64,000 nt of DNA from an uncultured Candidatus Saccharibacteria bacterium (lineage in GTDB: Bacteria; Patescibacteriota; Minisyncoccia; Phycocordibacterales; UBA2100): the NCBI GenBank assembly GCA_964471165.1, contig CAYYEX010000003.1, forward strand, positions 79,499-143,498, given 5' to 3'. Under the pieces are notes generated by a model that was given only the letters and a program-made list of their open reading frames with translations, was not told where the DNA came from and made no database searches. Positions 11,435-39,870 of this stretch are shown here, piece after piece (positions within the stretch are counted from its first letter, which is position 1; each line of letters opens with the position of its first letter). The position numbers were made by a program, and so were the translations under genes.

Positions 11435-13162
11435 TTAACCCGTCCAGTTGAAGAGGAGAATCGAGAAGTCGGCCAAGTTTACCGTATTGTCCTCGTTGAT
11501 ATCGGCATCGGGGTCATCCTCGTTCCAATGCGTGAGCAAAATCGAGAAGTCGACCAAGTTTACTTTTCCGTCTTTATTGATGTCGGAGCGATTGTCGTTA
11601 TCGACCTGTCGCGATGGAGCCTCCCCCACTCCCACGTACACAGGCGCGCTGTATTCACTCGAGGCAGATGGGGTAACTGTTTTTACTTTAATATCATACG
11701 TGCCACGTTTTAAATCTTTTGCGGGGATTGTAAACTCCCAGACTCCACCAGTGCCTGCAGCATTCTCTAGTGAGGTAGACGCTGTGTACTCCTTCGCTAC
11801 CCCCGCTGTGCCACTTGCCGGCACATCGCGAACAATGAGGTGAACGATGGTTCCCGGCACTCCAACGCCGGAGACACGCACACTCTCGGCCAGAGCAACC
11901 GATTCGGAATCGGGCGAAATCGTTGGTGAAAGCAGAACTCCGGTAATACCGTTTACCGTACCGGCATTCAACGTGAGCGTCGAAGAAAAACGTGACGACT
12001 TTCGTGCTCTTGCGTCAGTTGCAAAACTCACGAACGAATAGGTGCCTCGCTCAAGCGCTGAAATTGTTGTGCTAAATGCGCCGCTGCTTCCCGCAAGCAC
12101 GTTGGCCTGCTGCGTGCCGTCTTTCAATATTGTTACCGAGCTGTTTGCTGGTGCAAATCCGGAAATCTTTACCGTTGACTGGAACAGCAGTGAGCTGCCG
12201 CCCGCAAATGAGCCCGCTCCTCCAGAACCACCTGCCCCACCCGCTCCCGTAGACGCAACCCCCGGCGTATTGCCATCCGATGTCGTAACCGTTGGCGTGG
12301 TTGCGAGTGAAAACGTGTGCACGTAGTCGCTCTGTGCTGTTGCTCCGAATGTGTCGCGACAACGGATGTAGTACGAATAGGTTCCCCCGTCAGCGAGGCC
12401 GCTCACAACGCCGTAATGGAGTTGCTGGCCAACCGCTGAAAACGTGTTTGGCATTGATGCATACGTGATTCCAGAGGATGTGGCGTATTTGCAGGTCGCC
12501 ATAACATTTGTTTGAAATGAGAGCTCAACCATGGCGCTTCCAGCCGGAATTGTTCCTGTCGGGAGCGCATTTAATACCTGTGGCGCATTATCGGTGACGA
12601 CAGTCGTAAGCGTAATCGGGGTCACAACCACAAACATTGCTTTGGCGTCGTCGATTGGGGTTGCGCCGTTTGCCGTGTTCACACGAACGCGGTACGAACC
12701 AGGGAGCGCTGGGTTGACGGGCGATACATCTCCAACAACTTGGTGAGTCGCATTCGTGCCAAGAATAACGCGCACTGATTCATTTGCTGCAATGCCACTA
12801 CCCGATGAAAGCGCAATCGTGATTGAACCCGAGGCACCGCTTACAACCGTGACGCCGTCTTCGCTCGCACTCGGTAACGCTGCAAGGTTGTGTTCCGCAT
12901 ACGGTCCGCCGTTGGAGACTGCAACATCAACGTCGGTAAAATCAAATCCTCCGGGAATACTGAAGGCATCTTCGGGAGTAATGGTAATCGTTCCCGATGC
13001 GGGCACTGCGTTTCTGACCGTGAACGTAACAATATGGTTCGCGGCACTCGAAGGCACAGAAGTTGAAATGAGATCCGAAATCGGTGACATGTATCCCGCC
13101 TGTACAGTATGCAAAGCAATGAGCGGTAGCACGAACGTTATTACAACAAGAAAGCGCCGCAT
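11435..13162 (-). CDS. secreted Ig-like/beta-sandwich repeat protein with a C-terminal type-I dockerin domain
   Basis: Signal peptide MRRFLVVITFVLPLIALHTVQA. The ORF extends to 13429, but the start was chosen at 13162 just after the upstream stop. The C-terminal tandem DINKDGKVNLVDFSILL ... DINEDNTVNLADFSILLFNWTG forms canonical dockerin Ca-binding repeats. Confidence 0.7.
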   Translation of the reverse strand: MRRFLVVITFVLPLIALHTVQAGYMSPISDLISTSVPSSAANHIVTFTVRNAVPASGTITITPEDAFSIPGGFDFTDVDVAVSNGGPYAEHNLAALPSASEDGVTVVSGASGSITIALSSGSGIAANESVRVILGTNATHQVVGDVSPVNPALPGSYRVRVNTANGATPIDDAKAMFVVVTPITLTTVVTDNAPQVLNALPTGTIPAGSAMVELSFQTNVMATCKYATSSGITYASMPNTFSAVGQQLHYGVVSGLADGGTYSYYIRCRDTFGATAQSDYVHTFSLATTPTVTTSDGNTPGVASTGAGGAGGSGGAGSFAGGSSLLFQSTVKISGFAPANSSVTILKDGTQQANVLAGSSGAFSTTISALERGTYSFVSFATDARARKSSRFSSTLTLNAGTVNGITGVLLSPTISPDSESVALAESVRVSGVGVPGTIVHLIVRDVPASGTAGVAKEYTASTSLENAAGTGGVWEFTIPAKDLKRGTYDIKVKTVTPSASSEYSAPVYVGVGEAPSRQVDNDNRSDINKDGKVNLVDFSILLTHWNEDDPDADINEDNTVNLADFSILLFNWTG

Positions 13163-13163
13163 A

Positions 13164-14009
13164 CTATAAATCTTTGACGCAGCGGAATCCGGCAGCCTCG
13201 CCTGCGAATGACGAAGGCACCGTAATGTTGATTGCGTATTGTCCTGCATCGGCCTGACTATTCCAGTAGCCGCCGCGCAAAATACCGCGCGTGTCGGTTG
13301 GGTCGAGCCAGAAATAATCGTTGAAAAACGATTCATCGGGAGTGTCGTGGTTAGTCGCAACCGGTGTGCCGTCTCCATCGATTCCCGTAATGTATCCCTC
13401 TTCAGGAAGCTTTTTTCCTTTGAACTCACCGTCGGTCACTGTTTCTTGCATCCACTCCCACGCGTTTCCAATCATGTCATACGCGCCCGACGGCGACACA
13501 CAATCTTTTCGTACGCCTGTTTTGTCCACCGCACCGCTGCCACGCAGACCCACGTTGCAGCTATCACTGGTGAGCGTTTCGCTGTCGGGCGTACCGAGCG
13601 CAGCTTTGTACCACTCAGATGCGCTCGGGAGCCGCTTGCCTGCACGCGCGCACGCATATTCCGCCTGGTCACGCGAAATGTTTCTCCACGGAGACTTTTT
13701 TGCAACGCTCGTCGGCTTACATGCCGAGATGGCAAGGTTATCGCTCGTTTGTGCTTTACTCGCAGGGTCTAGCGATGGACAGGAATCATTGGCAGATGCT
13801 TCATACGCGTCGATGCAGAAACCACCCCCGGTAGTGCCCACAAACGCCATTCCACTCGGGCATCTGCTCGCTTGCCCAGCAACTGCACTAAACGCCGCGC
13901 CGAGCATGGAGTTCTGCGGGGTGTCGCGATTATCAAATGCATTCAAACCGACTGTCGTGAATACGACCGTGCATACTGTCACAACGATCCATCGCAGGAG
14001 CGCTTTCAT
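13164..14009 (-). CDS. formylglycine-generating enzyme (FGE/SUMF1) family protein, secreted
   Basis: GNAWEW, RGGYWNS and GFRCV motifs of the FGE-sulfatase domain. N-terminal signal or anchor. Confidence 0.75.
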   Translation of the reverse strand: MKALLRWIVVTVCTVVFTTVGLNAFDNRDTPQNSMLGAAFSAVAGQASRCPSGMAFVGTTGGGFCIDAYEASANDSCPSLDPASKAQTSDNLAISACKPTSVAKKSPWRNISRDQAEYACARAGKRLPSASEWYKAALGTPDSETLTSDSCNVGLRGSGAVDKTGVRKDCVSPSGAYDMIGNAWEWMQETVTDGEFKGKKLPEEGYITGIDGDGTPVATNHDTPDESFFNDYFWLDPTDTRGILRGGYWNSQADAGQYAINITVPSSFAGEAAGFRCVKDL

Positions 14010-14040: not shown

Positions 14041-14445
14041 CTACGCAATCATCCGACGTCCGCGTCGGAAATCCATATAGTAGTTTGCGGCAACAAGAAC
14101 GAGCACAAGGATGCTGACGCAAAAACTTGCGGCCGCCAATGTGCGCGTACTGGTGAGCGACCCGCCCGAGATAGCTGCCACAGTTGCTTCGCGCGCATCA
14201 AGATCTGCCTGTTTTTGTGCGAGCTGCTCTGCTGCAGTGTTATACGGATTTGCCGGCACTCCAGCTGTCATGCCAATAACTGCGCTTCCCGCCATAGAGG
14301 CAGCGGTGTTTACCAGGACCTTCGGCGAGTCAATTGATGTGGCATACATAAACAGCGCAAGGGCAATCACAATCGCTGTGCGTCGAATCACCTCTTTTTC
14401 GTGTGAGACTGTATTTGGGCGCTTCTTCATGCATGTATTATGCAA
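14041..14445 (-). CDS. small 2-TM membrane protein
   Basis: ORF with two hydrophobic helices. Overlaps the upstream gene by 8 nt, so it is likely co-transcribed. Confidence 0.45.
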   Translation of the reverse strand: MHNTCMKKRPNTVSHEKEVIRRTAIVIALALFMYATSIDSPKVLVNTAASMAGSAVIGMTAGVPANPYNTAAEQLAQKQADLDAREATVAAISGGSLTSTRTLAAASFCVSILVLVLVAANYYMDFRRGRRMIA

Positions 14446-15511
14446 ACATCAGGAACAAAAGTACGAGGAACATGATGGCGAGGAACAAGAGCGCAAGGGC
14501 TATGATGAGCAGCTTTGGAACCGGCGACTGATTGCGACGCGCATATAAATCTCCCCCACCGCGTCCCCCGCTCATTTCGCGGAGCTTACGCGAGATATAC
14601 ATACGCACGAGCATATAGAGCACCAGGAGTGCCGCGAAGAGTGTGCCGAGCACGGTGAGAATAGGCTTGAGTGGAAGCACCCAGAAACTCGTCGCAGCGG
14701 ATACGGTTTTTCGACCATCTTCGCCGTAAACCATGCTCACAACTGCCTGGTATCTGCCAAATGCAACTCCGTCGTATTCCCACGTTTCAGTAAATGTTTT
14801 ATCGGTTGCCGGGAACACACCCGCCCCTATATCGTTTACTTTGACAACGCCGACTTTCGAACCCCGCATGTCAGTAATTTCTATAAGACCGTGCGGTCGT
14901 AGCAGAACATTACCGAGGTTGGCTATTCGCGTCTGTATATCTACCTGCGCTGCCGAACCATACACAATGTGCCCCGTTGAAAATTCGCGCAGCTGGGCGT
15001 CCTCAACCGCGTCGCCTGCAATGCGTAGATTGATGATTGAGCCAATTTTCAGACCGATTGCAGCCCCGTTCTCTCGCTGCTTCGGCGGTCGTGCGTCCAA
15101 AAAGACGCCGCCAAAGTGCGCACCCGGAGACGCGTCATTCGGCACACGAATGGTAAATGGAACACTTCGCGCTTCGTTGGGCCCGAGTGTAATCTGCGCA
15201 TCCGGCAATTCAATCCACGAACTTAATTCATATGGCGTAATTTCTGTTTCCTCGGAAAAGATTGGCAGGCCCGCATCAGTGAGGCCTGAAATATCTTGTG
15301 CAGTGAGATAGAACGTCTTTTCGCTACTGGAAATATTCGTGACACGAATCGTAAAGTTATAGACTTCGCCAGGATCCGCACGGTCTTCAATAACAGCCGG
15401 CTTGATTTCGATACCTTCTGATAATTGTGCAAATGCAGCGTTTGCCCCTATCAGTAATGTAAGGACGATGACAGATATGCCTACAAGCTGGTTTCGCAGT
15501 GTTGCGTTCAT
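14438..15511 (-). CDS. cell-surface protein with DUF916/CscA-like architecture (signal peptide, ~270-aa ectodomain, TM, cytoplasmic tail)
   Basis: Paralogous to the 17015, 18352 and 36775 proteins. Shared blocks include VPNDASPGAHFGGV, LREFSTGHIVY, NLGNVLLRPHGLIEITDMRGS and GRYQAVVSMVYGEDGRKTVSAATSFWVLP. The family assignment is by architecture and memory, not by search. Confidence 0.55.
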   Translation of the reverse strand: MNATLRNQLVGISVIVLTLLIGANAAFAQLSEGIEIKPAVIEDRADPGEVYNFTIRVTNISSSEKTFYLTAQDISGLTDAGLPIFSEETEITPYELSSWIELPDAQITLGPNEARSVPFTIRVPNDASPGAHFGGVFLDARPPKQRENGAAIGLKIGSIINLRIAGDAVEDAQLREFSTGHIVYGSAAQVDIQTRIANLGNVLLRPHGLIEITDMRGSKVGVVKVNDIGAGVFPATDKTFTETWEYDGVAFGRYQAVVSMVYGEDGRKTVSAATSFWVLPLKPILTVLGTLFAALLVLYMLVRMYISRKLREMSGGRGGGDLYARRNQSPVPKLLIIALALLFLAIMFLVLLFLMFA

Positions 15512-15559
15512 GGTTGCTGATCGAAAAAAGATTATGTGATTACTCTACCACGGCCCCTG

Positions 15560-15597
15560 CATGCAACATCCCCGCTACACTGCGGGGATGTTGCATG
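15560..15597. other. perfect 16-bp hairpin (catgcaacatccccgc-tacact-gcggggatgttgcatg) in the intergenic region between two surface-protein genes
   Basis: Seen in the sequence. Lies between the stop at 15618 and the next start at 15511. It may be a terminator or attenuator without a clear T-tract, or an operator. Confidence 0.6.
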
Positions 15598-15617
15598 AAA
15601 ACAAGACTTTTTCGAGC

Positions 15618-16763
15618 TTAGAAGATAGGTGTTGCGACGTAGGTCAGTGTGTTGGTGTAATCAGAACCTGCTTCCTGCAGCGTTCCGATTTCCAATTTGT
15701 ACGCTACAGTCGTCGAGCCTACACCGGCGGTTACGCCATCAGCTGGAGCGTTGTGATACATCACTTGGCGAGGCACGTTGAATTCACCAGAGAAGAGCTG
15801 TGTGCCGAACTCATCGCCACCTGATAGCACTGCGTCGTCACTCGTGAGGCCGAGGTGTCCATACGTGGCTTCTGTACCAAGTGTATTGAGTGGAGATGTC
15901 CAGGCGGTGGGCGTGCTATTAGCACCATCCTTGAAGGTGTCGATATCAGCACCCGTTGATGAGAGGAGGTTTGTGTCTTCGACAACAGTCACCGAGTAAC
16001 CGAAGGCAGCGTTTGTGACTACGTTCAACCGTTGACCGAGCACTTTTGGCGCACCGGCCGTCAGCGTACCGAAGGCCAGATACGTCGATGAGGAGAATCC
16101 GGTCAGTGTTTCGCCGTTTACAACAGACGATGTAGCCATGCCGGTAATCGAGAATGTGAATGTTGTGTCCACCGAAGCGGTTACAACCACATCGTCGATG
16201 GCAACAACACGCGTTTCGCCGAAGTCGCTGTTACCGCTGTTTGTCATCGTGATGCGGTACGAGCCAGCCGTAATAGGATTGGTGATAATTGGCGTTGAGG
16301 TACCGATAACAAGTGTCTTTGCTCCCGAGGTAACAGTGTCACCCGCGCAGACCGTGAAGGAAAATCCTTCCGAGCCACCGGTGTAATTTTGCGAGAATGT
16401 GACTTCGTCTGACCCACCACCGCATGTGGTAACGAGCGTCATGCCCGTAGTTTGAATCTGCGTCGTGGTTGCTGATGGACCAATCATTGAGAAGTTGCTT
16501 CCTGCAGGATCGAGCACAAATGCCATCACGCTCCCTGCTGGAGATGATGATGCTGTTGTGAAGCGCACAACGTGCTTCGTTGCGACGCCGAGATCGGAAT
16601 CCGACAGCGTGTCGCTGATGCTCGTCACCTGTGCGGCGTCTGCCCTATGCATAAGCAAGGGTGCGCCCGTGGCCCACAGCAAGGTTGCGATGATGAGAAC
16701 CATTGCAAGGGGCGACGAGAGGACCGACGCAGCCGGATGCTTAACTTGTTCGAATAGGTTCAT
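15618..16763 (-). CDS. secreted surface protein (381 aa), partner of the DUF916-like anchor. C-terminal tail ...TLTYVATPIF.
   Basis: Signal peptide, a Thr/Ser/Gly-rich beta-rich composition, and a conserved C-terminal block shared with the 19704-21041 protein (YK[LV]E...Y.[VI].TP[IV]F). Confidence 0.55.
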   Translation of the reverse strand: MNLFEQVKHPAASVLSSPLAMVLIIATLLWATGAPLLMHRADAAQVTSISDTLSDSDLGVATKHVVRFTTASSSPAGSVMAFVLDPAGSNFSMIGPSATTTQIQTTGMTLVTTCGGGSDEVTFSQNYTGGSEGFSFTVCAGDTVTSGAKTLVIGTSTPIITNPITAGSYRITMTNSGNSDFGETRVVAIDDVVVTASVDTTFTFSITGMATSSVVNGETLTGFSSSTYLAFGTLTAGAPKVLGQRLNVVTNAAFGYSVTVVEDTNLLSSTGADIDTFKDGANSTPTAWTSPLNTLGTEATYGHLGLTSDDAVLSGGDEFGTQLFSGEFNVPRQVMYHNAPADGVTAGVGSTTVAYKLEIGTLQEAGSDYTNTLTYVATPIF

Positions 16764-17014
16764 ATAAATAGAACTTTTTTGGCTTCTTTAATAAGCGTGT
16801 TAATTGCGCGAATGTGTCTGCACCCTAGAGAGAAAATACGCGTCCACCTGCTATCGCTCGACCGAAGCAGCTAAAAACGTACGGGGCCTGATAAACTCGC
16901 ATGTGTAAAGTATACGGCATCCTGTTGACAAAGAAGTTGATATCAAGCCAAACCATGTGGATAACGGCCTAAAAACGTGGATTTCTGGGTGGATAACACT
17001 GTGGAGAGCGTGTT

Positions 17015-18355
17015 CTACTGCTGCTCGCGTGGAACATCCGGCCCCATTTGCTCCTGTTGCGGGAGTTCTTTTATCTCGAAACTGCGCGCTGGCACAAGCA
17101 CAGTCGCGAAATAGAGCCATATTCCCGCAATAGATGCGGCAGAAATTACCAGAAACACAAAGAAAAGCTTGTATTTGCGCACAAAGCCCCCAAATGTAAG
17201 TGGTGCGCGATACGTCGGTGTCTCAAGCGGCATATCTATGTGCTTCGCTGATGCGATGCTTCTCAAATCAACAACCCCCTCCTTGATTGGCTGCACCAGC
17301 GCCCGCAACGACGGCATGTGTTCAACGGGTTCTTGTACCTGCCTGTCGGGCACATCAAGATGCTCTGGAATACCCCGATACATGCGCTCAAGCGCAAGTG
17401 CTCGCCGAATGTAGCGGCGGATAAACCAAGTCATGAGAAAGCCAATGAAGAGAATGATTCCGAGAGTAATCGCAGCAGGAACCATCGGGATTACCCAAAA
17501 ATAGGTGGTGGCAGATGTGCTTTGCTTGCCATCATCTCCGTATCCGAGTGTCACGATTGCGCTGTAGCGACCAATGTCGAGCAGATTCTGTTCTCCGCTC
17601 CAGGAAAACTCGAACTTCCGGACGGACCGTGGCAGCACATTGCCAAAGTTACTGTTTTCGTTGATAAGCACCTGTCCGCGCTCCTTACCCCACATGTTAT
17701 AGAGCGTGATTGAACCCTGCGGACGCAGGTGCGTGTTGCCAGTGTTTTCAAAACGAAGCGCGAATTTTGCTTCGGGACGCTGATAGAGCGAGCTATCAGT
17801 TGTGAACTCTCGAATGCGTCCACTCTCTATTATTTCGCCCCTAATACGCACAAATAATAGAGAGGTGACGAAACTCGATACTTTCATATGCGAGCCCGCT
17901 TCGGAATCACTCCCCTTGTACGGACCGACCATTATCGCAGCGTAGTGGCCGCCGGGATCGGCATTCTCCGGAACCTGCACAGTGAATTCAACCTGTGCAC
18001 TTTCTCCCGCTTGAATGGTTATCGGCTCCTTTGATATCGCAATCCATGCACCGAGTGAATCGGTGCGCTTGGGCTCATTCGTAAATGACTCGATGAGTGG
18101 CACAAATTTACCCTGACCACTTTCGCCCTGCGATTCAAAATCAACCACCTGTGCACCATAGGTGACAGCATATGAATTGTTATTGACGACCCGAATGTTG
18201 CTCGTCCACGACTCCCCAGGGCCAACGGTGAGTTGAAAAAGTGGCGGCGTGATTGTGACGGAGAGCGATTCTTGAGCCGACGCCGAGAGCGGCGAAATAA
18301 GCAGTGCTCCAATCATGAGCGCAGCGAGTGACGCGCGCCGCAATGCGAACGTCAT
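17015..18355 (-). CDS. DUF916/CscA-like membrane-anchored surface protein (446 aa) with an extended cytoplasmic tail containing a second TM
   Basis: Paralog of 14438-15511, with shared blocks VPENADPGGHY, IREFTTDSSLY, NTGNTHLRPQGSITLYNMWGK and GRYSAIVTLGYGDDGKQSTSATTYFWVIP. Confidence 0.55.
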   Translation of the reverse strand: MTFALRRASLAALMIGALLISPLSASAQESLSVTITPPLFQLTVGPGESWTSNIRVVNNNSYAVTYGAQVVDFESQGESGQGKFVPLIESFTNEPKRTDSLGAWIAISKEPITIQAGESAQVEFTVQVPENADPGGHYAAIMVGPYKGSDSEAGSHMKVSSFVTSLLFVRIRGEIIESGRIREFTTDSSLYQRPEAKFALRFENTGNTHLRPQGSITLYNMWGKERGQVLINENSNFGNVLPRSVRKFEFSWSGEQNLLDIGRYSAIVTLGYGDDGKQSTSATTYFWVIPMVPAAITLGIILFIGFLMTWFIRRYIRRALALERMYRGIPEHLDVPDRQVQEPVEHMPSLRALVQPIKEGVVDLRSIASAKHIDMPLETPTYRAPLTFGGFVRKYKLFFVFLVISAASIAGIWLYFATVLVPARSFEIKELPQQEQMGPDVPREQQ

Positions 18356-19671
18356 AGTCCGTTTTTGAGGTTGATGACATGTCCAACGTTTCGTTTCTGC
18401 GCCACCTGTGGTTGTGAAGACGTGAGGTCGATGGTGCGCGGGGCCTGCTCGCGCTGCGCGGGAGCTTGCTGCACCTCGTGCACCGCTACCTCGGCTTGCG
18501 TCGCGACATGCGCTGACTCTGGCACAGGCACAGGCACAGCTTCAACAACTGCTGCAGATGCTACTACTTCTGTGCGCTTCTCACGCTTGAAGCGAGCAAA
18601 GAAGCCTTTTTTTACAGGTTTCGGTTGCTCGGGCATGATTGCCGTAAACTTTTTTGGTGCGGCTGCGGGGGTGAGTACCATCCCAACAGGGGCCGGCATA
18701 ACTCCCGCTCCCGCTCCCGCAAGAGCAAATCGCTGCATATGACGGTGTTCAAGCCATCGATGGAAATAGAGAGCCGAAACAATAATCGCAATCACACTCA
18801 CCACAAAAATCGCCGCGAGTTGCTGCCACGGGATAATCCAGAAGAAAACTGTGTCTTGCAACGAACCGCTTTGATTGTTGCCGTAGTCAATATTGAGAAA
18901 CGCCTTGAACTTACCGAAACCCTGCGCAGAACTCCAAGCGCTCGCTAACTGCGCTGCTTGTTCAGGCGTAAACGACTTTCCGTCCGGGTTCACGGGAACC
19001 GAGGCCACTTCCCTGCCTTTGCGGTCGTAGATACGGATTTCTCCCTTTGGCATCAAACTCTGATTGCCTATATTCTCGAGTTGGTAGTTAAATAACACGT
19101 CGTCACCAGAAAAGAAGAAACTGTCGGTGACGAACTTGTTGAGTTGCATAGACTCCTTTATCTCTGCCTGTACATCGGTGTTCACCGTAACAACCCCCAG
19201 CGGGCTTCTGGCTTGCGCCTCTGCCAGTGTGGAACCTTCGTAGAACGAGATATCTGCATGGTAGGTGCCCGGAAGTGCATTGAGACTGACGCGCACTACA
19301 AACGGAATCTCACGCGTCTCGCCCGGTTTCAACTCAACAACGCCGCGTGAGATTTCTATCCAGTTGGCCAGAGAGTCTTTTTTATCATCGGCCCCGAGTG
19401 CTGATACGAACTCTTCTTGCCCTTCCTGAGGCGTCACATCGTTGACGGTTGTGTATAGATTGAGTTTCCGCTGCGTCGTATTGGTAACAGTTATGGCTTC
19501 TTTGAGAATGTCGCGAGCCTTTGCTTTTTCGTCAACGACGACAGGTACAACCGTGAGGTCCGCAGTTGAATCGGCGCGCGCGATAAACGGATAGGAAATA
19601 GCAATGACGGCGAGCACAAACAGAGGAAGAATTGCAAAACGCTGCGTCATATGTGCATGTAGGGACAGCAT
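18352..19671 (-). CDS. DUF916/CscA-like membrane-anchored surface protein (439 aa) with an Ala/Pro/Val-rich cytoplasmic tail
   Basis: Same architecture and motif blocks (LENIGNQSLMPKGEIRIYDRKG ... FFWIIP). A 4-nt overlap with the downstream paralog indicates an operon. Confidence 0.55.
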   Translation of the reverse strand: MLSLHAHMTQRFAILPLFVLAVIAISYPFIARADSTADLTVVPVVVDEKAKARDILKEAITVTNTTQRKLNLYTTVNDVTPQEGQEEFVSALGADDKKDSLANWIEISRGVVELKPGETREIPFVVRVSLNALPGTYHADISFYEGSTLAEAQARSPLGVVTVNTDVQAEIKESMQLNKFVTDSFFFSGDDVLFNYQLENIGNQSLMPKGEIRIYDRKGREVASVPVNPDGKSFTPEQAAQLASAWSSAQGFGKFKAFLNIDYGNNQSGSLQDTVFFWIIPWQQLAAIFVVSVIAIIVSALYFHRWLEHRHMQRFALAGAGAGVMPAPVGMVLTPAAAPKKFTAIMPEQPKPVKKGFFARFKREKRTEVVASAAVVEAVPVPVPESAHVATQAEVAVHEVQQAPAQREQAPRTIDLTSSQPQVAQKRNVGHVINLKNGL

Positions 19672-19703
19672 AACAAGGAAATGTGATGGAATTTATACAC
19701 AGT

Positions 19704-21041
19704 TTAAAAAACGGGGGTTACGATATACACGATTGCTCCCTGATATGCGCCTGCATCCTGCGAATCTCGCACTTCGACTTTATAAATAATATCGGTACTC
19801 GAGGCAGACGTCGGGCCGGAGCCATATGCGACTTCCGTCGGACTCGAAGTAAAGCGCGCGAACGAATCATCTGCCGCGAAACGAATCGAACCACCTTCAA
19901 GCACGTCTTCTCCTGTGTGGTATCCGTAACAACCGGTCGATGTGGCCGAGCACGCACTCGTCCATCCCGCCGGCGAATCGTTCGTAGAGAGTACCGGTGG
20001 AATCTCACGTGCACTCGGGCTGAGCAAGCCCTGGCGCTGATAGGTATAGATTTTGTATCCGTTGTCGGCGTTCGTGGTGACGGTGAGCCGGTGCGCCCCG
20101 ATACGGGGTGTACCCAGTCCAAGCGCTCCAAAACTCACACTTGTTGGCTGCGTGGTGATATCGGTGGTCACACCTTCTGTACTCGCCCCGGATGAGATAC
20201 CTCCAATCGAGAACGAGATTGTGCCACCATCAACCACCAAACTGGGGTACGTCTCACCCGTGTTCAGCGGGACGGGAACATTTGTCACCTTATCGACAAG
20301 GCGGAAGTAATAGACGGTGCTCTCGAGCGCATCTGTTTGTTTAATCGTAAAGTCGAACTCTTTGCGTGTACTGCCAAAAAAGAAGAATGGCGACGTTGTG
20401 GTGCCAGATTTATTATATGAACCACATCCATTGCCCACACTACCCGAACACGCCTGCGGATCAGAAAGCGTTATCTCGGCAATAACGCCGTTGTCCGCGC
20501 CCCCGCCAGGTGCGTAACACCAAACCACCAATGCGCTGCATTCACCATTTTCACCGACGAACACTTCCCCGACCGAGAAGTCGGACGATGTGGAATATTG
20601 CAGACGAAACTTTATATTCGAGTAATCGGGGCCAAGGTTGTTAACAGTGATGCGAAGTTTAAATGGATCGTCGTATGGAATCGCTGACGGGGCAACGTTT
20701 TCCCCTGCATACGGAACGAGAGGCGTTGCTTGAGGCGCATCGTCGTACCAGCGCCAATTTTGCGATGCGAATGGACTGACGTCGGCAGGATACAGGTATC
20801 CGCCTGCGAGTGAGAAACTCGTACTTGTGGATTCACCATCTCCGTTTGGGTCCATTGAACCGAATGCCGTGAAGCTTGAGGTTGTGGAATACCCGCCCAT
20901 CTGTGTGAATCCATTATCGTTCATACGAAAACCGCTACTCGTCAATTCGTCGGCGAGAACGGATGCGGCGGATACCGCAATTATCAAAAACGCACACCCC
21001 GCGCCGAGTATTTTGTTCCTTGCTGTGTGCGAGCGTGTCAT
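19704..21041 (-). CDS. secreted surface protein (445 aa), paralog of the 15618 protein. C-terminal tail ...AIVYIVTPVF.
   Basis: Signal peptide and a conserved C-terminal block (IIYKVEVRDSQDAGAYQGAIVYIVTPVF). Lies upstream of two DUF916-like genes. Confidence 0.55.
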   Translation of the reverse strand: MTRSHTARNKILGAGCAFLIIAVSAASVLADELTSSGFRMNDNGFTQMGGYSTTSSFTAFGSMDPNGDGESTSTSFSLAGGYLYPADVSPFASQNWRWYDDAPQATPLVPYAGENVAPSAIPYDDPFKLRITVNNLGPDYSNIKFRLQYSTSSDFSVGEVFVGENGECSALVVWCYAPGGGADNGVIAEITLSDPQACSGSVGNGCGSYNKSGTTTSPFFFFGSTRKEFDFTIKQTDALESTVYYFRLVDKVTNVPVPLNTGETYPSLVVDGGTISFSIGGISSGASTEGVTTDITTQPTSVSFGALGLGTPRIGAHRLTVTTNADNGYKIYTYQRQGLLSPSAREIPPVLSTNDSPAGWTSACSATSTGCYGYHTGEDVLEGGSIRFAADDSFARFTSSPTEVAYGSGPTSASSTDIIYKVEVRDSQDAGAYQGAIVYIVTPVF

Positions 21042-21043
21042 GG

Positions 21044-21550
21044 CTATTCTCCGGTGCTCGTAATCGGGCCGACTTCGATAATCCTATCGATTGACGGTCG
21101 ATAGATTATTGCTTTCTGCGAAATCATGTACATGAGCACCTTGTCACCGAGTTGCGCGTTTCTGAAAAACGCCTGACCTTCAAGGGCGTGCAGGTCTGTC
21201 ACTGTTGCAAGGGCGGGTGTTTCGCTCTCCGGCAGGAGCATGTGCTCCCCCACGTCGGCAACAAGAGCGCGGACTTCGCGCTCCGTGCCACCAAAGAAAT
21301 AACCCCATAGGTGGGTTATGCCGTAGCCCAGCAGAATTAAAACAACAATTGCAACAACTCCCGCGGCAAGCGTCATAACTGCGCGCTCACGGTTGCGTTT
21401 TGGCGCTGAGCGCGCCCGAGGCACCTCTACCGATTCTGCTTCGCGAGCACGCATATCACTCATCCGCGCTGGTGCGGGTGTTGGTTGCATCGTCTTGCGA
21501 AGGTCGATGGTCATACTATTGTTTCGACCCCTGTATCGACTGAACGACAC
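21044..21550 (-). CDS. small membrane-anchored protein (168 aa)
   Basis: Single TM (VVAIVVLILLGYGITHLWGYFFG). The ectodomain is weakly similar to the adjacent 21516 protein. Confidence 0.4.
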   Translation of the reverse strand: MSFSRYRGRNNSMTIDLRKTMQPTPAPARMSDMRAREAESVEVPRARSAPKRNRERAVMTLAAGVVAIVVLILLGYGITHLWGYFFGGTEREVRALVADVGEHMLLPESETPALATVTDLHALEGQAFFRNAQLGDKVLMYMISQKAIIYRPSIDRIIEVGPITSTGE

Positions 21551-21917
21551 GAGAGGTGTCTTTCATGTTCTCCCAAAACGTTATTGATTCTTTGCGAATA
21601 TATATGGTGTCTTCCGGTCCGTGGAGTTCGCCACCAAGTTTTACGAGATTGAGATTGGACTGCGTAAGTTCGCTCGCCTCTTTGAGGTAATAAACATCGC
21701 TGAGTGTTACGTAGTCGCCGCTTGTGTCAGAAAGCCTACCGAAATACACCTGTCCGCTCTGCAAAAATACTGCCTGATACTTTTCTGCCGATGCAGCAGG
21801 AAACGCAGCCCGGGATTGAAGCGGGCCAATGTAGCTCGTATAGAGCCAGATAGCGACAATAGCGATGAGCGCGTACGTTATTCCCTTAATGAGGCTCTTG
21901 AGAATGAGGTCAATCAT
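21516..21917 (-). CDS. small membrane-anchored protein (133 aa)
   Basis: N-terminal TM. The ORF overlaps the downstream gene. Confidence 0.4.
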   Translation of the reverse strand: MIDLILKSLIKGITYALIAIVAIWLYTSYIGPLQSRAAFPAASAEKYQAVFLQSGQVYFGRLSDTSGDYVTLSDVYYLKEASELTQSNLNLVKLGGELHGPEDTIYIRKESITFWENMKDTSRVVQSIQGSKQ

Positions 21918-21920
21918 ATG

Positions 21921-22817
21921 TTAATTGCTTCTATTAATAGACACTTCTGTTAGTGACGTAACAGGTCGCCAGGACCCTCGTTCACCCTGCTCGCCTATCA
22001 ATAGATAGTACGTGCCATTCTGCACACTCGCAGGCAAATCATCTATTGCATAGTCATACGAACCACTCTCACAGGTATATGCACGATTAAGGATGTACGA
22101 AGCAGGGTCGGTGTCGTAATCAGTTTGATTTTTATAGAGGAGCACAACGTAGTATGCGTCGCTGCATGTTCCCGAAACGTTCACTACTTTTTTCGCGGGA
22201 TCAATCGTTGTTGTTACCGATTCAGTGGAATCACCGAGCTTGCGCTTCGTCGGGAGTGTATTTCCGGAGAGACTCATCACAAACGCAGGCTCAATCTCGG
22301 CATTCAATTGCGCATTCGTGCGCACGTCTTCCTTTGCTGTCTGTATACCAGTGGCAACAATGGTAAGGTCACTCTGTGCTGCAACAGGAATCTCATCAGG
22401 CGCGAGCCCCGCAGGCTCCTCCTCAATCACAATGACATCCGGTATCGATTCCTCGGTCGTCGTTGCCGCCTCAACAGGAATGGTCGTTGCTTCACTCGGG
22501 AGGTCAATCTCGGGATTCGCAGCCTCCTCGAGCAACTCTGCGCTCGCGGTCACTTGCGTGCTGCTTGCTGTCTCCTGCACCACCTCTACAACTGAATCAG
22601 GTTGCGACACCACCGCATCGGGTTCGGTAGGGGTTGATTCCTCTACAACAGTCTCGAGCGGAGTCGCTGGCGCCACTTCTGTCACCTGAGTCACCTCCTC
22701 TGTCACCTGAGTCACCTCCGCTGCAACTGGCTCAACCGGGACGTCTGTTGTTTGCGCAGATGCCGCTGGGGCCACGAGAAGCACAAGTGCACAAAGCAGA
22801 GCGAGAATCTTTTTCAT
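21921..22817 (-). CDS. secreted acidic low-complexity protein with EVTQVT repeats and a Cys-containing C-terminal globular domain
   Basis: Signal peptide MKKILALLCALVLLVAPAASA chosen as the start (the ORF extends to 22916). Repeats such as AEVTQVTEEVTQVTEV. The C-terminal domain has four Cys. Confidence 0.5.
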   Translation of the reverse strand: MKKILALLCALVLLVAPAASAQTTDVPVEPVAAEVTQVTEEVTQVTEVAPATPLETVVEESTPTEPDAVVSQPDSVVEVVQETASSTQVTASAELLEEAANPEIDLPSEATTIPVEAATTTEESIPDVIVIEEEPAGLAPDEIPVAAQSDLTIVATGIQTAKEDVRTNAQLNAEIEPAFVMSLSGNTLPTKRKLGDSTESVTTTIDPAKKVVNVSGTCSDAYYVVLLYKNQTDYDTDPASYILNRAYTCESGSYDYAIDDLPASVQNGTYYLLIGEQGERGSWRPVTSLTEVSINRSN

Positions 22818-22866: not shown

Positions 22867-25800
22867 TTATCTATCCGTCTCGATATATATTCTGTTAACT
22901 CCGATTTGCGCGGCATTCACGAGGGTGTTGGACGCGTTGCTCATACACGCGTGCGCGACCAACATTTGTGTATTTGCCGGCAGGTCGGTATTCACACTAC
23001 CCTCTTGTAACTTGAGTCCGGTGTTGATGTCGTCGAGCTGCCAATACACAACAGTATCGTTCGGCTTTGCAAAAATATAGAACGCGTATCCTTGATTCGA
23101 TGCGAGTGCTGGTTGATTCGATATCGGCGAAACGCTCGCAAGGCCAGTCGCGTCGTTCGTAATGAACGAAATCGAGGTGGAGCCAGAATTGACCGCAAAG
23201 CCAATCGTACTCGTTCGGATGGTCGGATCAGATGTGCAGAGTGCAGTCGTGCTCGTGGAGAAGCCTACGAACAGTCGGTCGTTTGCAGTCCATGTATCGG
23301 TACCGACGCGCGCCGCGAAGAAGAAGCCTCCCTGCCCTGTACTTGCTCCACGGAAGAACATCGCCTCGGTTCGGGTGCCGACCTGTTGGTTGAGTGTAGT
23401 TACAACACTCGCGAAACGAGAACGACGCTGATTCGTGTAGAAGTTTGTTGTAGTTGGTAACACAATTGCGGCTGTACCAAGGTTTGCGCCAACAGTGCCC
23501 GTCCATACTCCAGCAGCGGCACCGGGATTGAAGTATGTGAGGTTATTCTGCCAAATTGCAGACTGGAATGGAGTATCGACACCGGAGGGCCCCATCCATT
23601 TGGGAACCACACGATTTGCAATTGCCTTTGCGTAAATATCGAGCCCAGAAGTAGGGGTGGCTTGGTCCGTTGTTGTGGCAAGATTCAACACACCAGTATT
23701 CCCCACCGAGAAGAGTGTTTCACCTGTACTGGATGAGATGGTGAATATGTCAGTTGCTTGATTTGCAGCTGCGGTGAGTGCCAGGCGATTAGCGGAAAGA
23801 CTCCAGTTGAAATTCGAGGTCGCGGTGAATGAGCCGTCGACGTTGCGGAATTGCACATCACCCGTAGAACTTGCTGCTTGACCCCCGCAGGTTACCCACG
23901 AACCGTTGTAGCAACGGAACGCCGCTGTATTACTGTTGTAATACATTGCACCGTTCACACCGCTCGATGGGTCGCCCGGTGTATTTTTGGTATCGAGCAC
24001 GAGCCATGTCGGTGTACCACCACCAGTTCCAAGGGTGACTCGGTTATTGATTGTATCGATGCCGAGCACTTGCGGAGTTGATGTGCTACCAAATGTGAGG
24101 CCTGCAGTCGACGAGAAGTTGGATTGGAGCACAAGCGCGTTGGTCGATGTGGACTGAATGGTGCGTGCATAGAATTGTGTTGCTTCCATGAGACTCGACG
24201 ACGCATTGCCAAACTGCTGCAAGCCGCTCCAGACGTTGGGATTTGAAAGGTTGAGCGATATACCAACTGCGCCACTGCCGGGAGAAACAGTGAGTGTTGT
24301 GTTCGTTGCGGTAAGCGAGTTGACGGTGCACACGCCATTGATTGCATAGCATCCGCTCTCCATATTAAATCCTGCCGCACTCGAGGTGGAGGTGAGACGA
24401 ATTGAAAGCGCCTGCAAATTGCCATTCGCCTGCACATTTCCTGAGAATGTTGACGTCGAATTCGTTCCCGTAACATTTATAAATCCTTGGATGGTTGACG
24501 TGCCGGCTACGTCGCCCTGAATCGTGGTTGTTGCGGTAGTTCCGGCAGAGAGCGAGCTTGCACCAACGTCGGTCGCGGCGAGCGACGCAGCGAGCACATT
24601 TGCAAACGTTGAAGCGCCGGTTGCCTGCACATCTATCAGATTGAGTTTTGTGTACATAGTGGAACCAAGCGTTGAGAAGTTGGCCACGTTTCCGATTGAG
24701 AAGATTGAACCCGGTGCAGATGTGGCGATGCCCATGCGGTTCGAGAAGTATGATTTGCCAAACACTTCGAGCATCGCGTCATCGGTTGTTGTTGCTGAGT
24801 TGCCTACGATTACGGCGTAGTTCGGATCCGATGGATAAATCGCCAAGTCGTCGGTCGTTGTTGAGAAGAATCCACCGCCTCCACCGCCGCCTCCACCGCC
24901 CTGCAAGTCGGCCCCCCATGCTGGCAATCCGCCTGCTATTTTCAACACCGCACCATTGCCGCCCGCAGGTAGTGGAACAAGCGTTGTTCCATTGAGTGCA
25001 TAGAGAATATCGCCCGCCGTATACGACGTATTGCCGGTGCCGCCTCGTGTCTCATCCAATGTTCCGACTGTGTCGCTTATATAAATACCGAGCGTCGTAG
25101 TCGCCACGAGGTCGTAACCACCAAGACCATCACCCACGAGCAATTGTCCCCGTGTTGGCGCGGTCGACGTGCCGGTGCCACCATTTGATATACCGAGCAC
25201 GCCAGTTACGTCATTTGCAAGGTCAACGAGCGCCGCAACAACCGACCCGGCAGTGGCTTTCAAGATGCCGGTCACTTTTCCAAAGGTGAAGCTATTCGAT
25301 GCAACAAGATTCGATGATGATGCGACCCCTGTTGCAGCAAAGTTTGTTGATGTTGCGTTGCCGAACATTGCGTTTGCAAATGTTTGTAGCGCCGTGAAAA
25401 TGTTTGCGGTAAACGATTTTGCAACTGTGGTGGATGCGCCGACGAATTCATTCACACGTGACTCCGTGTAATACAAATTCTGTACTCCTTCGACAAGCGA
25501 GTCGGTTGTTGTAGCCAAGCCAATGGATGATGTTGCAACGAGCACATAGCCACCGGCACCGTCGCCCATCAAGAGCTGTCCGTAGGATGGCCCTGAACTC
25601 AAACCGGTACCACCATTGGTAACTGCCATCGTTCCCTGAAACGGACCGTATTCATACACAACCACGATGCCGCTGGCACCGTTGCCGCCGGCTGCGCCCG
25701 TGGCAGTGTCGGCAAGTGCCGCGCCACCACCGCCAGCTCCGTATGTAGTTGCATTCGAGCCCGCGCTCTGTGTGGCAGTGACAACAACCGAACCACCATC

Positions 25801-28800
25801 ACCACCACCACCCCAGTAGCTTGAACCGCCGACACCGCCGAACGCAGTATTCCCCACTTGAGAGTTACCATCCTGACCGTTTCCGCCTGCAACCTGCACA
25901 TCTCCGGCCGTAGCACTTCCCCCGACGCCTCCGGCAAGTGTTCGCGGACCAGCAACAGTATCAGCGGAAACCGCACCCACGCCGCCACTTCCACCACCCG
26001 CGCGGCCAAGCGCTGGACCAAACGATGAATGACCACCCCCGAGTCCGGTGCCTCCGGCTGCGGCGGTACCTCCTGTGCCGCCCGCACCAACTACGACCTG
26101 CACGGAGGTCGTTGCAGTTAAATCAACGTGCAGAAATGCTGTTGCACCCGCTCCTGCGCCACCAGCCGGCACCTCAACAGTTGTCCCATCGCTGTCCGCT
26201 CCTCCGCCCCCGCCTCCGCCTCCAGTTACTATTACTTGTGCAGATGTTGCGCCGGCAGACGGTGTGTACGTAGTTGTGCCGACAGCACTAAATGTTTGTA
26301 TTGCAATCAGTTCGCCACTACCACCTCCCCCTCCTGGCCCGGAAGAAATACACACGCCATCTATTGAGTAGCATCCGTCAGTAATATCGAAACCGTTTGA
26401 ACCCGTTGATGTAGCGGTTGTTGTAAGCGAGCCAATTGTCGCATTCCCGAACGATGCGGTATTTGCACGCGTTTCGGTTGACGACGAGAACGTGGTGAAC
26501 AATGTTGTCGTTGTTGCGTTCGTTGCCGTTATATTTGCAAAGGCATTCGTGCCCGTGTACGTGTTGTTGGTGTTCGTTTTCGGAAGCGCAACGGTATTCT
26601 CGACGAAGTAGTTTGCCGATGTGGTGGAGAATGCATTTCCTTGATTTTGTCCGAGGAAATACGCAGTTGATGTTGTGGAAAATGCGAGACCAAGTGAGGA
26701 GAAGTGTGAGGCGCTGGTTGTAGAGAAGAAGTTGTTCTGTGTTTTCCAATAGTCGGTCGAGGATGTGGAGAAGAAACTGCTCTGAGTTTTCCAGAAATCA
26801 CTCGAGGTGGTGGAGAAAAAGAATCCTTTGTCCACAAGTCCGAGCGATGATGTCGAAAGACGGGAATTGAACGAACCGAAATCCGACGAGCCCAGGTACC
26901 CGCTTGTGGAGCTATCGGCCTGCTGTACCGAGAGCGTTCCTGCACTGAACTGCACCGGGCCGCTGACGGAAACCCCTTGCACGATACCGCCCGCTCCAGT
27001 GTAGAGCATTGAACTTTGAATTCCCGAGATTGTGAGATTTGTCGTCGAAGCGATAGCGGTTGAGAGCGATGTGGTCGTTGCTCCAGTGGCGGAAATATTT
27101 CCAAATGTATTCACGCCAGTGAAGGTGTTGTTGGTAAATGTTTTTGCAATCGTGCTCGAAGCCCCCACGAACGTATTCACCAAACCATTCGAGTAGTACT
27201 TATTCGTTGCTCCTTCAGCGAGAGCATCCGTGGTCGTGCCCGCAATTACAGAAGCCACGCGCGTTGGTGTGTAGTACTGGTTTGAACCCTCGGCGAGATC
27301 TGACGTGCTCTTTGTTGCGAGCCAGGCATTCGACGATGTGGTTGCCCAACGGAACTGGGTAGAGTCCCAAAACGCCACCGAGGTGCTCGAGAAGAAGTAC
27401 CCATTGTCGTAGGTTGAAAGGTCGTATGCAAATGACGAGGTTGAATGGAAGTTGCGCTGTGTTTTCCAATAATCAGCAGACGAGGTTGAATAGCTCTCCC
27501 CCGGGTTCTGCGAGTTAAAATACGCAGCCGACGTTGTGCTAAACGCAAGACCGGCCGCGGCAAAGCTCGACGCGCTCGTCGAAGAGAAGAAGAAGCCTTT
27601 GTCTATACCATTGAGGTATGTCTGCACGCGCGAATCCTGGTAGTACCTGTTGGTACTACCCTCTGCGATAGCATCGGTTGTTGTGGCAGAAAGTGCGGCT
27701 GCAACACGATTCACCGTAAAATATCTATTCGTTGAACCTTCTGCGAGTGCATCGGTGGTGGTTGCGTACCACTGCGCAAGCCCCATGTATGCCCCGAGGT
27801 CACCAAACGCCACGAGTCCGAGCGAGGAAGTTGATACCTGCGTCCAGGTATTTCCCGGCCCTCCTATTAATAGAGCGTTTTGGGATACGGAGTTGAGGCC
27901 GGTACCGCCGCTTGTACCCGAGAGCGCATTACCGAGACTGAGCGTGCCGATTGTGGCGGAACCCGCTGAAGCGGTGTTGGTGTTGATATTCGTGGTTGAT
28001 GCAGTGCCCGTGTAGAGCGTGGTTGTCGTCGCGTTGGTTGCAGAGACTGTGTTGCCAGTAAATGCCCCAGCAATGAGCGAGCCGATAGTTGCGATGTTCG
28101 AGAACAAGCTCGTGGACGATGCCGTGCCTGTGTACGACGATGTCGTCGTAGCGCCAGTAGCTGTTACATTTTGAAACGAGTTTGTTCCCGTGTATGTGTT
28201 GTTTGTAAACGTTTTTGGAATGGTAGTTGATGCGCCGACGTAATATTCGGCCGATGAAGTGGAGAAACCATTTGCCTGATTCTGTGACAAGAAGTACGAA
28301 GCCGAAGTTGTTGAGAACGCGAGTCCGGCCGATGCGAAATTGGATGCAGACGTGGTGGAGAAGAAAAATCCTTTGTTTACGCCGTTGAGATATGTCTGCA
28401 CGCGTGCGTCAGCGTAGTACTTGTTTATTGCACCTTCTGCAAGCGCATCGGTTGTGGTTGCATACCACTGACTCAGTCCGAACTTCAAATCAAGCGCGTT
28501 CTGTAAATCTGTTTGTGCAGAAAGTGTCCCCGTAATTGAGCCCCAGACTAAGGACCCCGATGAGATTCCGAGCGACGACGTTGCCACCAGGTCGTAGCCG
28601 CCCGCATTATTCCCGACAAGGACTTTTCCATATGTAGGCGCTGTCGAAGTGCCCGTGCCGCCATTTGAAATACCAAGTACTCCGGTTACATCGGAAGCGA
28701 GATTGAGGAGTGACGAGCTCACAACACCTGCCACCGACTTGAGCACGCCTGTTGCTTTCCCAAACGTGAATCCGTTCGAGACAACGAGATTCGACGTGGA

Positions 28801-31335: not shown

Positions 31336-31342
31336 GATAATT

Positions 31343-37782: not shown

Positions 37783-37860
37783 GGTCTCAATAGTATCACG
37801 GTCGCCTCCCAGAATGTCCAGCGAATACTGGATATTCGAGCGATTACACTACCCCAACTC

Positions 37861-39702: not shown

Positions 39703-39870
39703 AGAGCGCGTGCGCTTCAGGAATACCGAGAAAGCCTTACTGTGCCTCCGAGAAAGATGTTCGGACATACCTTATGGCAAATCGTACCACTCCTCTCCTT
39801 GAATACGTGGATATGATGTGGATAAGTGCTGTTTTTTTGGCTTCGGACCTCACTTTTTTCCGACTGTGGA

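Follow-up and report, generated by a model that had tools for sequence, protein, structure and literature searches.

A probable Pam-like surface fibre operon with WxLIP-family anchors in a Paceibacteria genome

The window analysed here, a stretch of 64,000 nucleotides from contig CAYYEX010000003.1, contains an operon on the minus strand, reading from 21041 to 14438, in which genes for secreted pilin-like subunits are interleaved with genes for membrane-anchored proteins of the WxLIP family. The host lineage is Paceibacteria/Minisyncoccia, that is, a Parcubacteria-type bacterium of the Candidate Phyla Radiation (CPR). In coding order, with anchors labelled A and secreted partners P, the operon consists of P2 (19704-21041, 445 amino acids), A3 (18352-19671, 439 amino acids), A2 (17015-18355, 446 amino acids), P1 (15618-16763, 381 amino acids) and A1 (14438-15511, 357 amino acids). 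All five genes were also predicted by an independent gene caller on the source contig, a 173.5-kb metagenome contig (ENA ERZ27247837) of which the window is an identical part, and the coding sequences of A2 and A3 overlap by 4 nt. Some 16 kb away, at higher window coordinates and upstream in the coding direction, lie P3 (37861-39768, minus strand, 635 amino acids), a secreted Cys-rich partner, and then A4 (36775-37782, minus strand, 335 amino acids), a divergent WxLIP-family paralog with a single transmembrane (TM) helix and a basic tail. The seven open reading frames (ORFs) named in an earlier note on this DNA are all present on the minus strand at these coordinates. That note had placed three modules within 14438-21041; two of them do lie there, but the third, P3-A4, is found outside, at 36775-39768. 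Its observation that a secreted protein precedes each anchor or anchor pair holds throughout, with P2 preceding A3-A2, P1 preceding A1 and P3 preceding A4.

The anchors are paralogous, as had been proposed. BLASTP comparisons gave 30% identity between A1 and A2 (E 2e-44), 29% between A2 and A3 (1e-30) and 25% between A1 and A3 (2e-25). The similarity of A4 to A1-A3 is weak in BLAST (E 0.006), and the A-family profile finds A4 at an hmmsearch E of 1e-6. When the A4 family (50 sequences) was aligned with the A family (69 sequences), HHalign returned a probability of 97% and an E of 9e-11 over 241 collinear columns. At the profile level, A4 is a distant paralog of A1-A3. Of the three conserved blocks that the earlier note had described for all four anchors, A1-A3 possess every one, in the forms N.GN...P.G, G[RK][YF].A and FW[VI].P. 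Over the 69 aligned sequences, which include A1-A3, these blocks vary little or not at all, but A4 keeps only GRY.A. The predicted architecture was borne out in A1-A4: an N-terminal hydrophobic signal segment is followed by an ectodomain of ~250-270 residues and a TM helix. A hydrophobic segment at the N-terminus is found in every protein of the cluster, partners included. The C-terminal TM helix lies at ~285-305 in A1-A4, and A1 and A2 possess a second one, while A3 carries a long Pro/Ala-rich cytoplasmic tail. In its AlphaFold2 (AF2) model, which has a predicted local distance difference test score (pLDDT) of 87, A1 has two beta-sandwich domains, one at residues 34-164 (DUF916) and one at 172-278. 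Two helices come after them, 281-314 and 331-356, and their hydrophobic TM cores are at ~284-302 and ~334-352.

In Firmicutes, the WxL or Csc clusters encode CscA, which is the WxLIP and possesses a DUF916 peptidoglycan-binding domain (PGBD), a DUF3324 host-binding domain (HBD) and a TM helix, together with the WxL-domain proteins CscB and CscC and the LPXTG protein CscD (PMC1534035, PMC10599100). The proposed kinship of the anchors with DUF916, now named WxLIP_PGBD (PF06030; Pfam), was supported by several comparisons. PF06030 matches A1 with 31.5 bits, above the gathering cutoff of 27.3; the scores of A2 (23.7 bits) and A3 (21.4 bits) fall under this cutoff. At E<=0.01 the model matches 69 of 69 aligned A-family members, with a best E of 9e-12, and some A relatives already carry the NCBI name 'DUF916 domain-containing protein [Minisyncoccia bacterium]'. 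The comparison set was made up of seven WxL clusters of Firmicutes, carried on plasmids of Enterococcus, Lactococcus and Lactiplantibacillus. HHalign aligned their WxLIPs (n=7) with the A family at a probability of 98.6% and an E of 5.6e-16 over 256 columns, with both domains collinear. Controls made of reversed or unrelated beta-rich profiles never fell below a P of 0.0016, so this result lies far outside the noise.

The structural comparison also agrees with the earlier proposal of a CscA-like ectodomain. In a Foldseek search with the A1 model, the top PDB match is the WxLIP 9i25_C/9i1y (E 2e-13), with ~260 columns aligned to 9i25_C. Both entries are titled 'WxLIP from Enterococcus faecium', and one of them shows the protein bound to a long WxL protein (PDB). 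The runners-up are the chaperones CfaA (5e-10), CsuC, FimC and Caf1M (~1e-8) and SafB, the range extending down to 1e-7. Independently of the model, EfmWxLIP1 is the PDB-wide top match of the A-family sequence profile (E 1e-4). Overall, the A anchors are true WxLIP/CscA (DUF916) homologs that share the fold of chaperone-usher chaperones. For A4, which has no Pfam match, the kinship is found at the profile-profile level only (HHalign against the Firmicutes WxLIPs, 55%, E 1e-4). The DUF3324 similarity that had also been expected was not found, PF11797 matching none of the 69 A-family members. A second Ig-like domain is nevertheless present in A1, and the HHalign alignment with WxLIP runs collinearly through it. 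Near the N-terminus of the WxLIP PGBD, the segment NQIDKxxxYFDLK is a conserved hallmark (PMC10599100); in the HHalign alignment it corresponds to a gap, that is, a deletion, in the CPR A family.

The partners of these anchors are related to the pilins of a recently described system. A pilus with membrane-tethered chaperones was first described in 2026, in Saccharimonadia and Microgenomatia, with Candidatus Mycosynbacter amalyticus (CPR, Saccharimonadia) as the organism of the Pam pilus (bioRxiv 10.64898/2026.03.03.709456). It consists of the pilins PamA, PamB and PamE, the tip protein PamT, the chaperones PamC (WP_260763277.1) and PamD (WP_260763284.1), which are anchored in the membrane, and the anchor PamR (WP_260763282.1), and structures of two of the M. 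amalyticus pilins have been solved by cryo-EM (10.64898/2026.03.03.709456). The Pam pilins possess two domains, a donated linker strand and paired cysteines (10.64898/2026.03.03.709456). In M. amalyticus, PamA and PamB rank 2nd and 9th in abundance among the proteins. Two NCBIfam models, NF058581 (CPR_Pam_pilin_C, Pam pilus system pilin subunit) and NF058579 (PamT), derive from the same work (10.64898/2026.03.03.709456). NF058581 matches P2 at an E of 3.3e-8 over model positions 3-148 of 148, and it matches 60 of 65 P2-family members, with a best E of 8e-11. The matches of NF058579 are weak and confined to 8 of the 65 P2 relatives. Among P1 orthologs, one of the five scanned matches NF058581 (E 2.6e-4), and the link of P1 to the Pam pilins otherwise runs through its homology to P2.

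This homology covers only the last ~180 residues of P1 and P2, which are 31% identical (BLASTP, E 3e-16). At the profile level it is much stronger: the C-terminal domains of the two ortholog families align in HHalign at an E of 2e-32, and the P2-family profile finds P1 at an E of 6e-25 over profile positions 272-445. Judged by sequence similarity, P1 and P2 carry a Pam-type C-terminal domain that is homologous to that of the Pam pilins while remaining below the curated membership threshold. In P2 the domain spans residues 299-445 (19707-20147, minus strand) and ends in the strand VYIVTPVF; in P1 the linker and C-terminal domain together span residues 201-381 (15621-16163, minus strand) and terminate in DYTNTLTYVATPIF, with TYVATPIF at the very end. 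The tail that the earlier note had singled out is kept in orthologs. Specifically, Y439, I440, P443 and F445 of P2 are each conserved in at least 90%, and the 7 of 7 complete P1 orthologs shown end in TY[VI]ATP[IVT]F or the close variant NYIATPTF. Both of the features on which the earlier note had staked its proposal, DUF916 similarity of the anchors and a partner C-terminal block kept in orthologous clusters, were thus found.

The assignment of P2 as a secreted pilin-like subunit draws on its ORF, its all-beta AF2 model and its NF058581 match. In the model (pLDDT 78) the N-terminal domain occupies residues 91-250 and the C-terminal domain residues 313-443, with strands between them at 267-281. 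This layout of N-terminal beta domain, linker strand and C-terminal domain agrees with that of a two-domain Pam pilin, and P2 also has three conserved Cys pairs. The linker (residues 267-281, SLVVDGGTISFSIGG; 20199-20243, minus strand) contains DSSP strands at 267-270 and 275-281 and is homologous to TTFTFSITG in P1. In both BLAST and HMM (hidden Markov model) alignments, the homology between P1 and P2 starts exactly at this alternating-hydrophobic strand, which reads TISFSIGG in P2 and TFTFSITG in P1. The P2 linker is a candidate donor strand, a role suggested by the linker strands described for Pam pilins (10.64898/2026.03.03.709456). Neither P1 nor P2 nor the P2-family profile found anything in sequence searches of the PDB.

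The N-terminal regions of the two subunits also show conserved features. In P2, the mature N-terminus (residues 31-88, window 20800-20950) is conserved, has low pLDDT and repeats S..F motifs (TS..F...FGG..TS.SF...GES.S..F.L..G). The donor strands of classical chaperone-usher pilins are disordered N-terminal extensions; by analogy, the donated strand might be this N-terminal stretch instead of the linker. The mature N-terminus of P1 (VTSISDTLSDSD, window 16620-16660 region) corresponds to a motif, [LV]T.[IV]SDTL[ST]DSD, that is strongly kept in orthologs. Additionally, residues 6-178 of P1 resemble the N-terminal region of a neighbouring dockerin protein (11435-13429, minus strand; BLAST E 9e-5), and the conserved P1 N-terminus may represent a motif for processing, or a strand motif, that the two proteins share.

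The earlier note had further suggested that the partner tail, in the place of a WxL domain, could be a divergent YxL-type anchoring motif. Statistically, kinship with WxL found no support, and the Pfam, custom HMM and HHalign comparisons were all at the level of noise. PF13731 (WxL) has no match at E<=1 in P1, P2 or P3, and a custom HMM built from 12 WxL sequences did not find them among the 508 ORFs of the window. The HHalign P values of the partners against WxL, 0.0095-0.14 with 0.0095 as the best, lie within the control range, which reaches down to 0.0016. Because reversed and unrelated controls match these values, the partner tail was rejected as a demonstrated WxL homolog and remains a lead at the level of motifs. 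To the eye, the tails do resemble each other. The ends of WxL proteins read AG.Y...[LI].W.L...P, and when HHalign is forced at a low threshold, the P1 C-terminal domain and WxL align collinearly from an FG block via G[YW].[VL] to the tail. An annotated WxL protein on a plasmid of Enterococcus sp. CR-Ec1 (locus L098, 4023-4739) has Tyr for Trp in its second 'WxL' motif and terminates in QYTTTITYNLTADPF, to be compared with DYTNTLTYVATPIF in P1. A BspA-family protein of the same cluster has Phe at that Trp position (NITFDLRSAP), so Trp is not obligatory in the second motif even in Firmicutes.

The order of the genes is conserved well beyond this genome. Relatives of P2 were found in 170 species-level Patescibacteria genomes, with one genome scanned per species. 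Synteny was counted over 80 loci that were kept, all with titles of the Patescibacteria group or of an unclassified 'bacterium'. Close relatives go by the names Minisyncoccia, Candidatus Pacebacteria, Kaiserbacteria and Adlerbacteria, which places the source among the Paceibacteria/Parcubacteria-type CPR bacteria. An A-type gene directly follows the P2-type gene in 73 of these loci, and the exact order pilin-anchor-anchor-pilin-anchor on one strand recurs in 24. In a further pattern, pilin-anchor-anchor, seen in 39 loci, most have a giant first gene or are ended by the end of the contig. Where A1 orthologs lack the upstream genes, a P1-type gene or its remnant still precedes them, even with the N-terminal domain lost. 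For example, a 210-amino-acid single-domain pilin precedes the A1 ortholog in one locus (L004), and a truncated P1-type remnant ending in TLTYVATPIF does so in another (L005). In a sister Paceibacteria clade, the region that aligns to residues ~90-445 of P2 forms the C-terminus of a giant protein, whose gene is followed by two anchor genes (L038, L043, L045-L052, L054-L061 and others). This suggests that the giants are subunits of an adhesin-like kind which rely on the same domain for anchoring or assembly.

When compared with the Pam pilus, the operon shows similarities in both composition and layout. Both are found in CPR bacteria, both interleave pilin genes with genes for two-Ig-domain proteins that resemble FimC/PapD and have a C-terminal TM helix, both have three such TM-anchored proteins per operon, and both lack an usher. 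For the Pam pilus, assembly and anchoring without an usher were proposed to be carried out by the FimC/PapD-like PamC and PamD, which have a C-terminal TM helix, and by the RbmA-like TM protein PamR (10.64898/2026.03.03.709456). A tail-fibre-like gene is a typical neighbour of pam genes (10.64898/2026.03.03.709456), and in the window a giant gene of this kind (Peptidase_G2 and Gly_rich_2) lies three genes upstream. There are also differences. The host of the window belongs to Paceibacteria/Minisyncoccia, whereas the main lineages named for Pam are Saccharimonadia and Microgenomatia (10.64898/2026.03.03.709456). The order is pilin-anchor-anchor-pilin-anchor, with only two pilin types in the window; a PamT-like single-domain pilin and a recognisable PamR are absent from it, and no ATP synthase genes occur nearby among the window ORFs scanned. 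Filaments have been seen for Pam, while the Paceibacteria system is known here from its genes. The window anchors are detectably DUF916/WxLIP proteins, in contrast to the preprint, in which neither DUF916 nor WxL is mentioned (10.64898/2026.03.03.709456). Overall, the system in the window would work in the manner of the Pam pilus and, most probably, belongs to that family as a distant member. The statement in the earlier note that such modules were uncharacterised outside Firmicutes has been overtaken by this preprint (10.64898/2026.03.03.709456).

The likeness to the Firmicutes WxL clusters is of a different kind. The anchors are homologous over both Ig-like domains and have the same layout of signal peptide and C-terminal TM helix, the genes follow the same order of partner and then anchor, and the C-terminal domain of the partners is modular, occurring on both small and large proteins. 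In addition, insertion of a DUF916 strand into the partner has been predicted for the WxLIP-WxL interaction (PMC10599100), which is the same principle as donor-strand complementation by chaperones. In contrast, the window cluster has no match to PF13731 or PF11797, the NQIDKxxxYFDLK segment is deleted in the CPR anchors, the partners carry a Pam-type C-terminal domain, and the host is a CPR bacterium and not a Firmicute. No CscD-type LPxTG motif was found in the 16 cluster and neighbouring proteins checked. The published definition of a WxL cluster calls for at least two WxL-domain (PF13731) proteins (Hassan 2023, PMC10599100), and because the cluster encodes no WxL proteins, it is not a WxL cluster in this sense.

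With the chaperone-usher pili of Gram-negative bacteria (Fim, Pap, CFA/I, Csu and Caf1) the operon shares the two-Ig-domain, chaperone-like fold of the A1 model. Its subunits also have a C-terminal strand in which hydrophobic residues alternate, together with a G.Y.G-type motif; this resembles the conserved C-terminal motif of chaperone-usher pilins. Neither an usher nor a PapD-type chaperone family came up in any of the Pfam scans, which covered the cluster and its neighbouring proteins. Unlike in those systems, there is neither an usher nor an outer membrane, the chaperone-like proteins are membrane-tethered instead of soluble, and the subunits have two domains, so that the relation is at the level of the fold only.

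The reading favoured here is a surface fibre system of the Pam-like type: the locus probably encodes subunits that assemble by strand complementation with the help of chaperones or anchors from the WxLIP family. Homologies, architectures and a conserved order of the genes are what the analysis shows, while strand donation, polymerisation and a division of labour among the anchors are inferred. P2 and P1 would be exported via Sec as subunits, and each would be captured by its cognate anchor on the outside of the cytoplasmic membrane. The anchor would then insert a beta-strand into the C-terminal domain of the subunit. The linker strand of the next subunit would displace this anchor strand, and a thin fibre would polymerise with no usher involved. 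Of the three anchors, one may keep the fibre fixed in the membrane at its base.

Several observations weigh against this reading. The score of P2 on NF058581 is 33.7 bits, under the curated naming cutoff of 55, and P1 itself has no match to this model. No Pam-related NCBIfam model matches the anchors, or the small conserved genes of the locus, and the likeness of the anchors to PamC and PamD is one of fold and C-terminal TM helix. The P2 model gives generic tandem-Ig matches only in Foldseek, and PamA and PamB (25PZ/25QA) are not among the listed PDB matches in either sequence or P2 fold searches. A gene for the single-domain tip pilin PamT is missing from the window, PamR is not identifiable in it, and no ATP synthase genes were seen among the window ORFs scanned. 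RbmA is a further match of the A1 model (E 1.4e-8), so that a chaperone and an anchor role are not distinguishable; given this match, one of the anchors could be PamR-like. In the sister clade, the P2-type protein is a giant of 1000-2470 amino acids and looks closer to an anchored adhesin than to a repeating pilin.

Two other explanations were considered. The operon may encode a static, WxL-type surface complex. Its anchors would hold P2, P1 and P3 non-covalently at the cell surface, by beta-strand complementation as between WxLIP and WxL proteins in Firmicutes, and the partners would be displayed adhesins or enzymes that form no filament. The anchors, as true WxLIP homologs whose closest solved structure is a WxLIP bound to a long WxL protein, fit such a complex, as do the partner-then-anchor order, which Firmicutes clusters share (small WxL, WxLIP, large WxL), and the occurrence of the partner C-terminal domains on proteins of ~200 to >2000 amino acids, which recalls WxL proteins, both small and large. 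Also in its favour are the giant P2 variants and the resemblance of the tail motif AG.Y...[LI].[YW].[LVA]..P to the second WxL motif. However, P1-P3 have no WxL match in Pfam or with the custom HMM, their HHalign values are within the control range, and there is no LPXTG partner. Moreover, the P2 family matches a Pam pilin C-terminal model that was derived from proteins of filaments seen by cryo-EM, and P1 and P2 keep the linker strand, which is the donated strand in Pam pilins. As the main alternative, a static complex is judged rather unlikely.

A second alternative takes the products as unrelated Ig-like surface or S-layer proteins encoded in an island of surface-protein genes, with the DUF916 and Pam matches reflecting generic similarity among beta-sandwiches. 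The window is indeed dense in surface proteins from ~11 to 64 kb, including cohesin, dockerin and FN3 proteins and giant ORFs, the anchors also match fn3_5, FixG_C, CARDB and DUF11 weakly, and the P2 model has generic Ig matches only. Yet generic similarity fits poorly with an HHalign E of 5.6e-16 to WxLIP over two collinear domains, when the lowest control P is 0.0016, or with a WxLIP as the PDB-wide top match by both fold and sequence. The same-strand order of pilin and anchor genes is also kept in dozens of species-level genomes, as is the P3-A4 pair in all seven loci. The synteny and the profile results largely refute this explanation, which is considered highly improbable.

In a broader reading, the Pam pili of CPR bacteria and the WxL (Csc) clusters of Firmicutes would be two branches of one ancient monoderm system. 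This proposal is tentative and, on balance, somewhat doubtful. Under it, the two-Ig anchor, a WxLIP in one branch and a PamC/PamD-like protein in the other, may complete the C-terminal beta-domain of its partners and hand it over by strand complementation. If so, WxLIP would be a pilus-type chaperone or assembly platform and not a host-binding protein, and divergent homology would link the WxL domain with the C-terminal domain of Pam pilins. A shared tail motif, AG.Y...[LI].[WY].[LV]..P, is consistent with this, as are the FG and G[WY].[LV] blocks, which are collinear in the forced alignment. The Paceibacteria operon would then be a bridging form, with Pam-type subunits beside recognisably DUF916 anchors. 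The preprint is silent on DUF916 and WxL, and the searchable literature holds no paper that links WxL with CPR or Patescibacteria, or WxLIP with Pam, so the observation of Pam-type subunits beside WxLIP-type anchors appears to be new.

CPR bacteria are mostly uncultured epibionts, and their attachment to hosts is a central open question. Paceibacteria (Parcubacteria) are the largest class of the CPR, and the operon is a related and strongly conserved one across this class, in which the NCBI Pam models score the P2 relatives below the naming cutoffs. The function of WxLIP/CscA in Firmicutes is still debated; for the WxL clusters, the comparison provides a testable hypothesis, a chaperone-like function in strand complementation. 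Beyond that, it suggests that usher-free systems for fibres or surface display in monoderm bacteria may have a common origin.

The second module, P3-A4, has similar features. In the 7 of 7 loci recovered, the P3 ortholog is directly followed by the A4 ortholog. P3 was considered as a third Pam-type pilin and rejected: it has no detectable similarity to P1 or P2, and in a profile of 139 sequences its C-terminal domain shows no significant similarity to P1, P2 or WxL. This domain, of ~165-180 amino acids (37864-38406, minus strand), has no Pfam or NCBIfam match. It was found in 213 cluster representatives (E<=1e-3), on proteins of ~90-2150 amino acids, and stands at the C-terminus of nearly all of the listed representatives, with the consensus ...Y[WF]GI.IP....L[AS]G.YTGQNT.......W. 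On the evidence of its sequences, it is an undescribed modular domain. The best reading of P3-A4 is a divergent second module that follows the same logic with a different client C-terminal domain.

The genes that flank the operon are partly kept with it. Directly downstream of A1 lies a gene for a small membrane protein of 129 amino acids (14041-14430, minus strand). Upstream of P2, gene calls on the minus strand predict a TM protein of 156 amino acids (21044-21514), a protein of 133 amino acids with an N-terminal TM helix (21516-21917) and a secreted protein of 298 amino acids (21921-22817), all three without matches to known families. The downstream gene and the three upstream genes are syntenic in 15-27 of the 80 loci; for the upstream genes, which are syntenic with the P2 ortholog, the counts are 27 (156 amino acids), 22 (133 amino acids) and 15 (298 amino acids). 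A scan for promoters and terminators found a number of sites not above that of shuffled sequence. A secreted protein like FGE-sulfatase (formylglycine-generating enzyme family) is encoded further downstream, at 13164-14009 on the minus strand, and its gene is syntenic downstream of A1 orthologs. In genomes without P2-A3-A2, both this gene and the 129-amino-acid gene stay downstream of A1 orthologs, and their products might modify or process subunits. P2 genes that share 45-71% identity with the window are found in many TPA metagenome-assembled genomes titled 'uncultured Candidatus Saccharibacteria bacterium' (L008-L010 and others). These titles look like placeholder taxonomy and are not evidence for Saccharimonadia.

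Further surface proteins are encoded around the two modules. Cohesin and dockerin genes are found at 32875-33657 (plus strand) and, on the minus strand, at 33673-34668, 34665-35627, 35632-36765 and 11435-13429. Two of these ORFs match Pfam Cohesin, one of them with a sub-threshold Dockerin_1 match, and a third is paralogous to one of the two. Two secreted proteins have a terminal type-I dockerin, one of which also carries a DUF4215 Cys-rich repeat and Big_6. This suggests that a cohesin-dockerin system for surface display adjoins the pilus-like operon. Of the giant ORFs on the minus strand, the one at 22867-31533 (2888 amino acids, called as 2822 amino acids) contains Peptidase_G2, an autoproteolytic domain, and Gly_rich_2, and can be described as 'tail-fibre-like'. 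The other, at 47717-63991 (5424 amino acids), contains DUF2341 and Ig_Rha78A_N, as well as homologs of the P2 N-terminal domain at residues ~1040-1224 and ~4943-5199 (E 5e-8).

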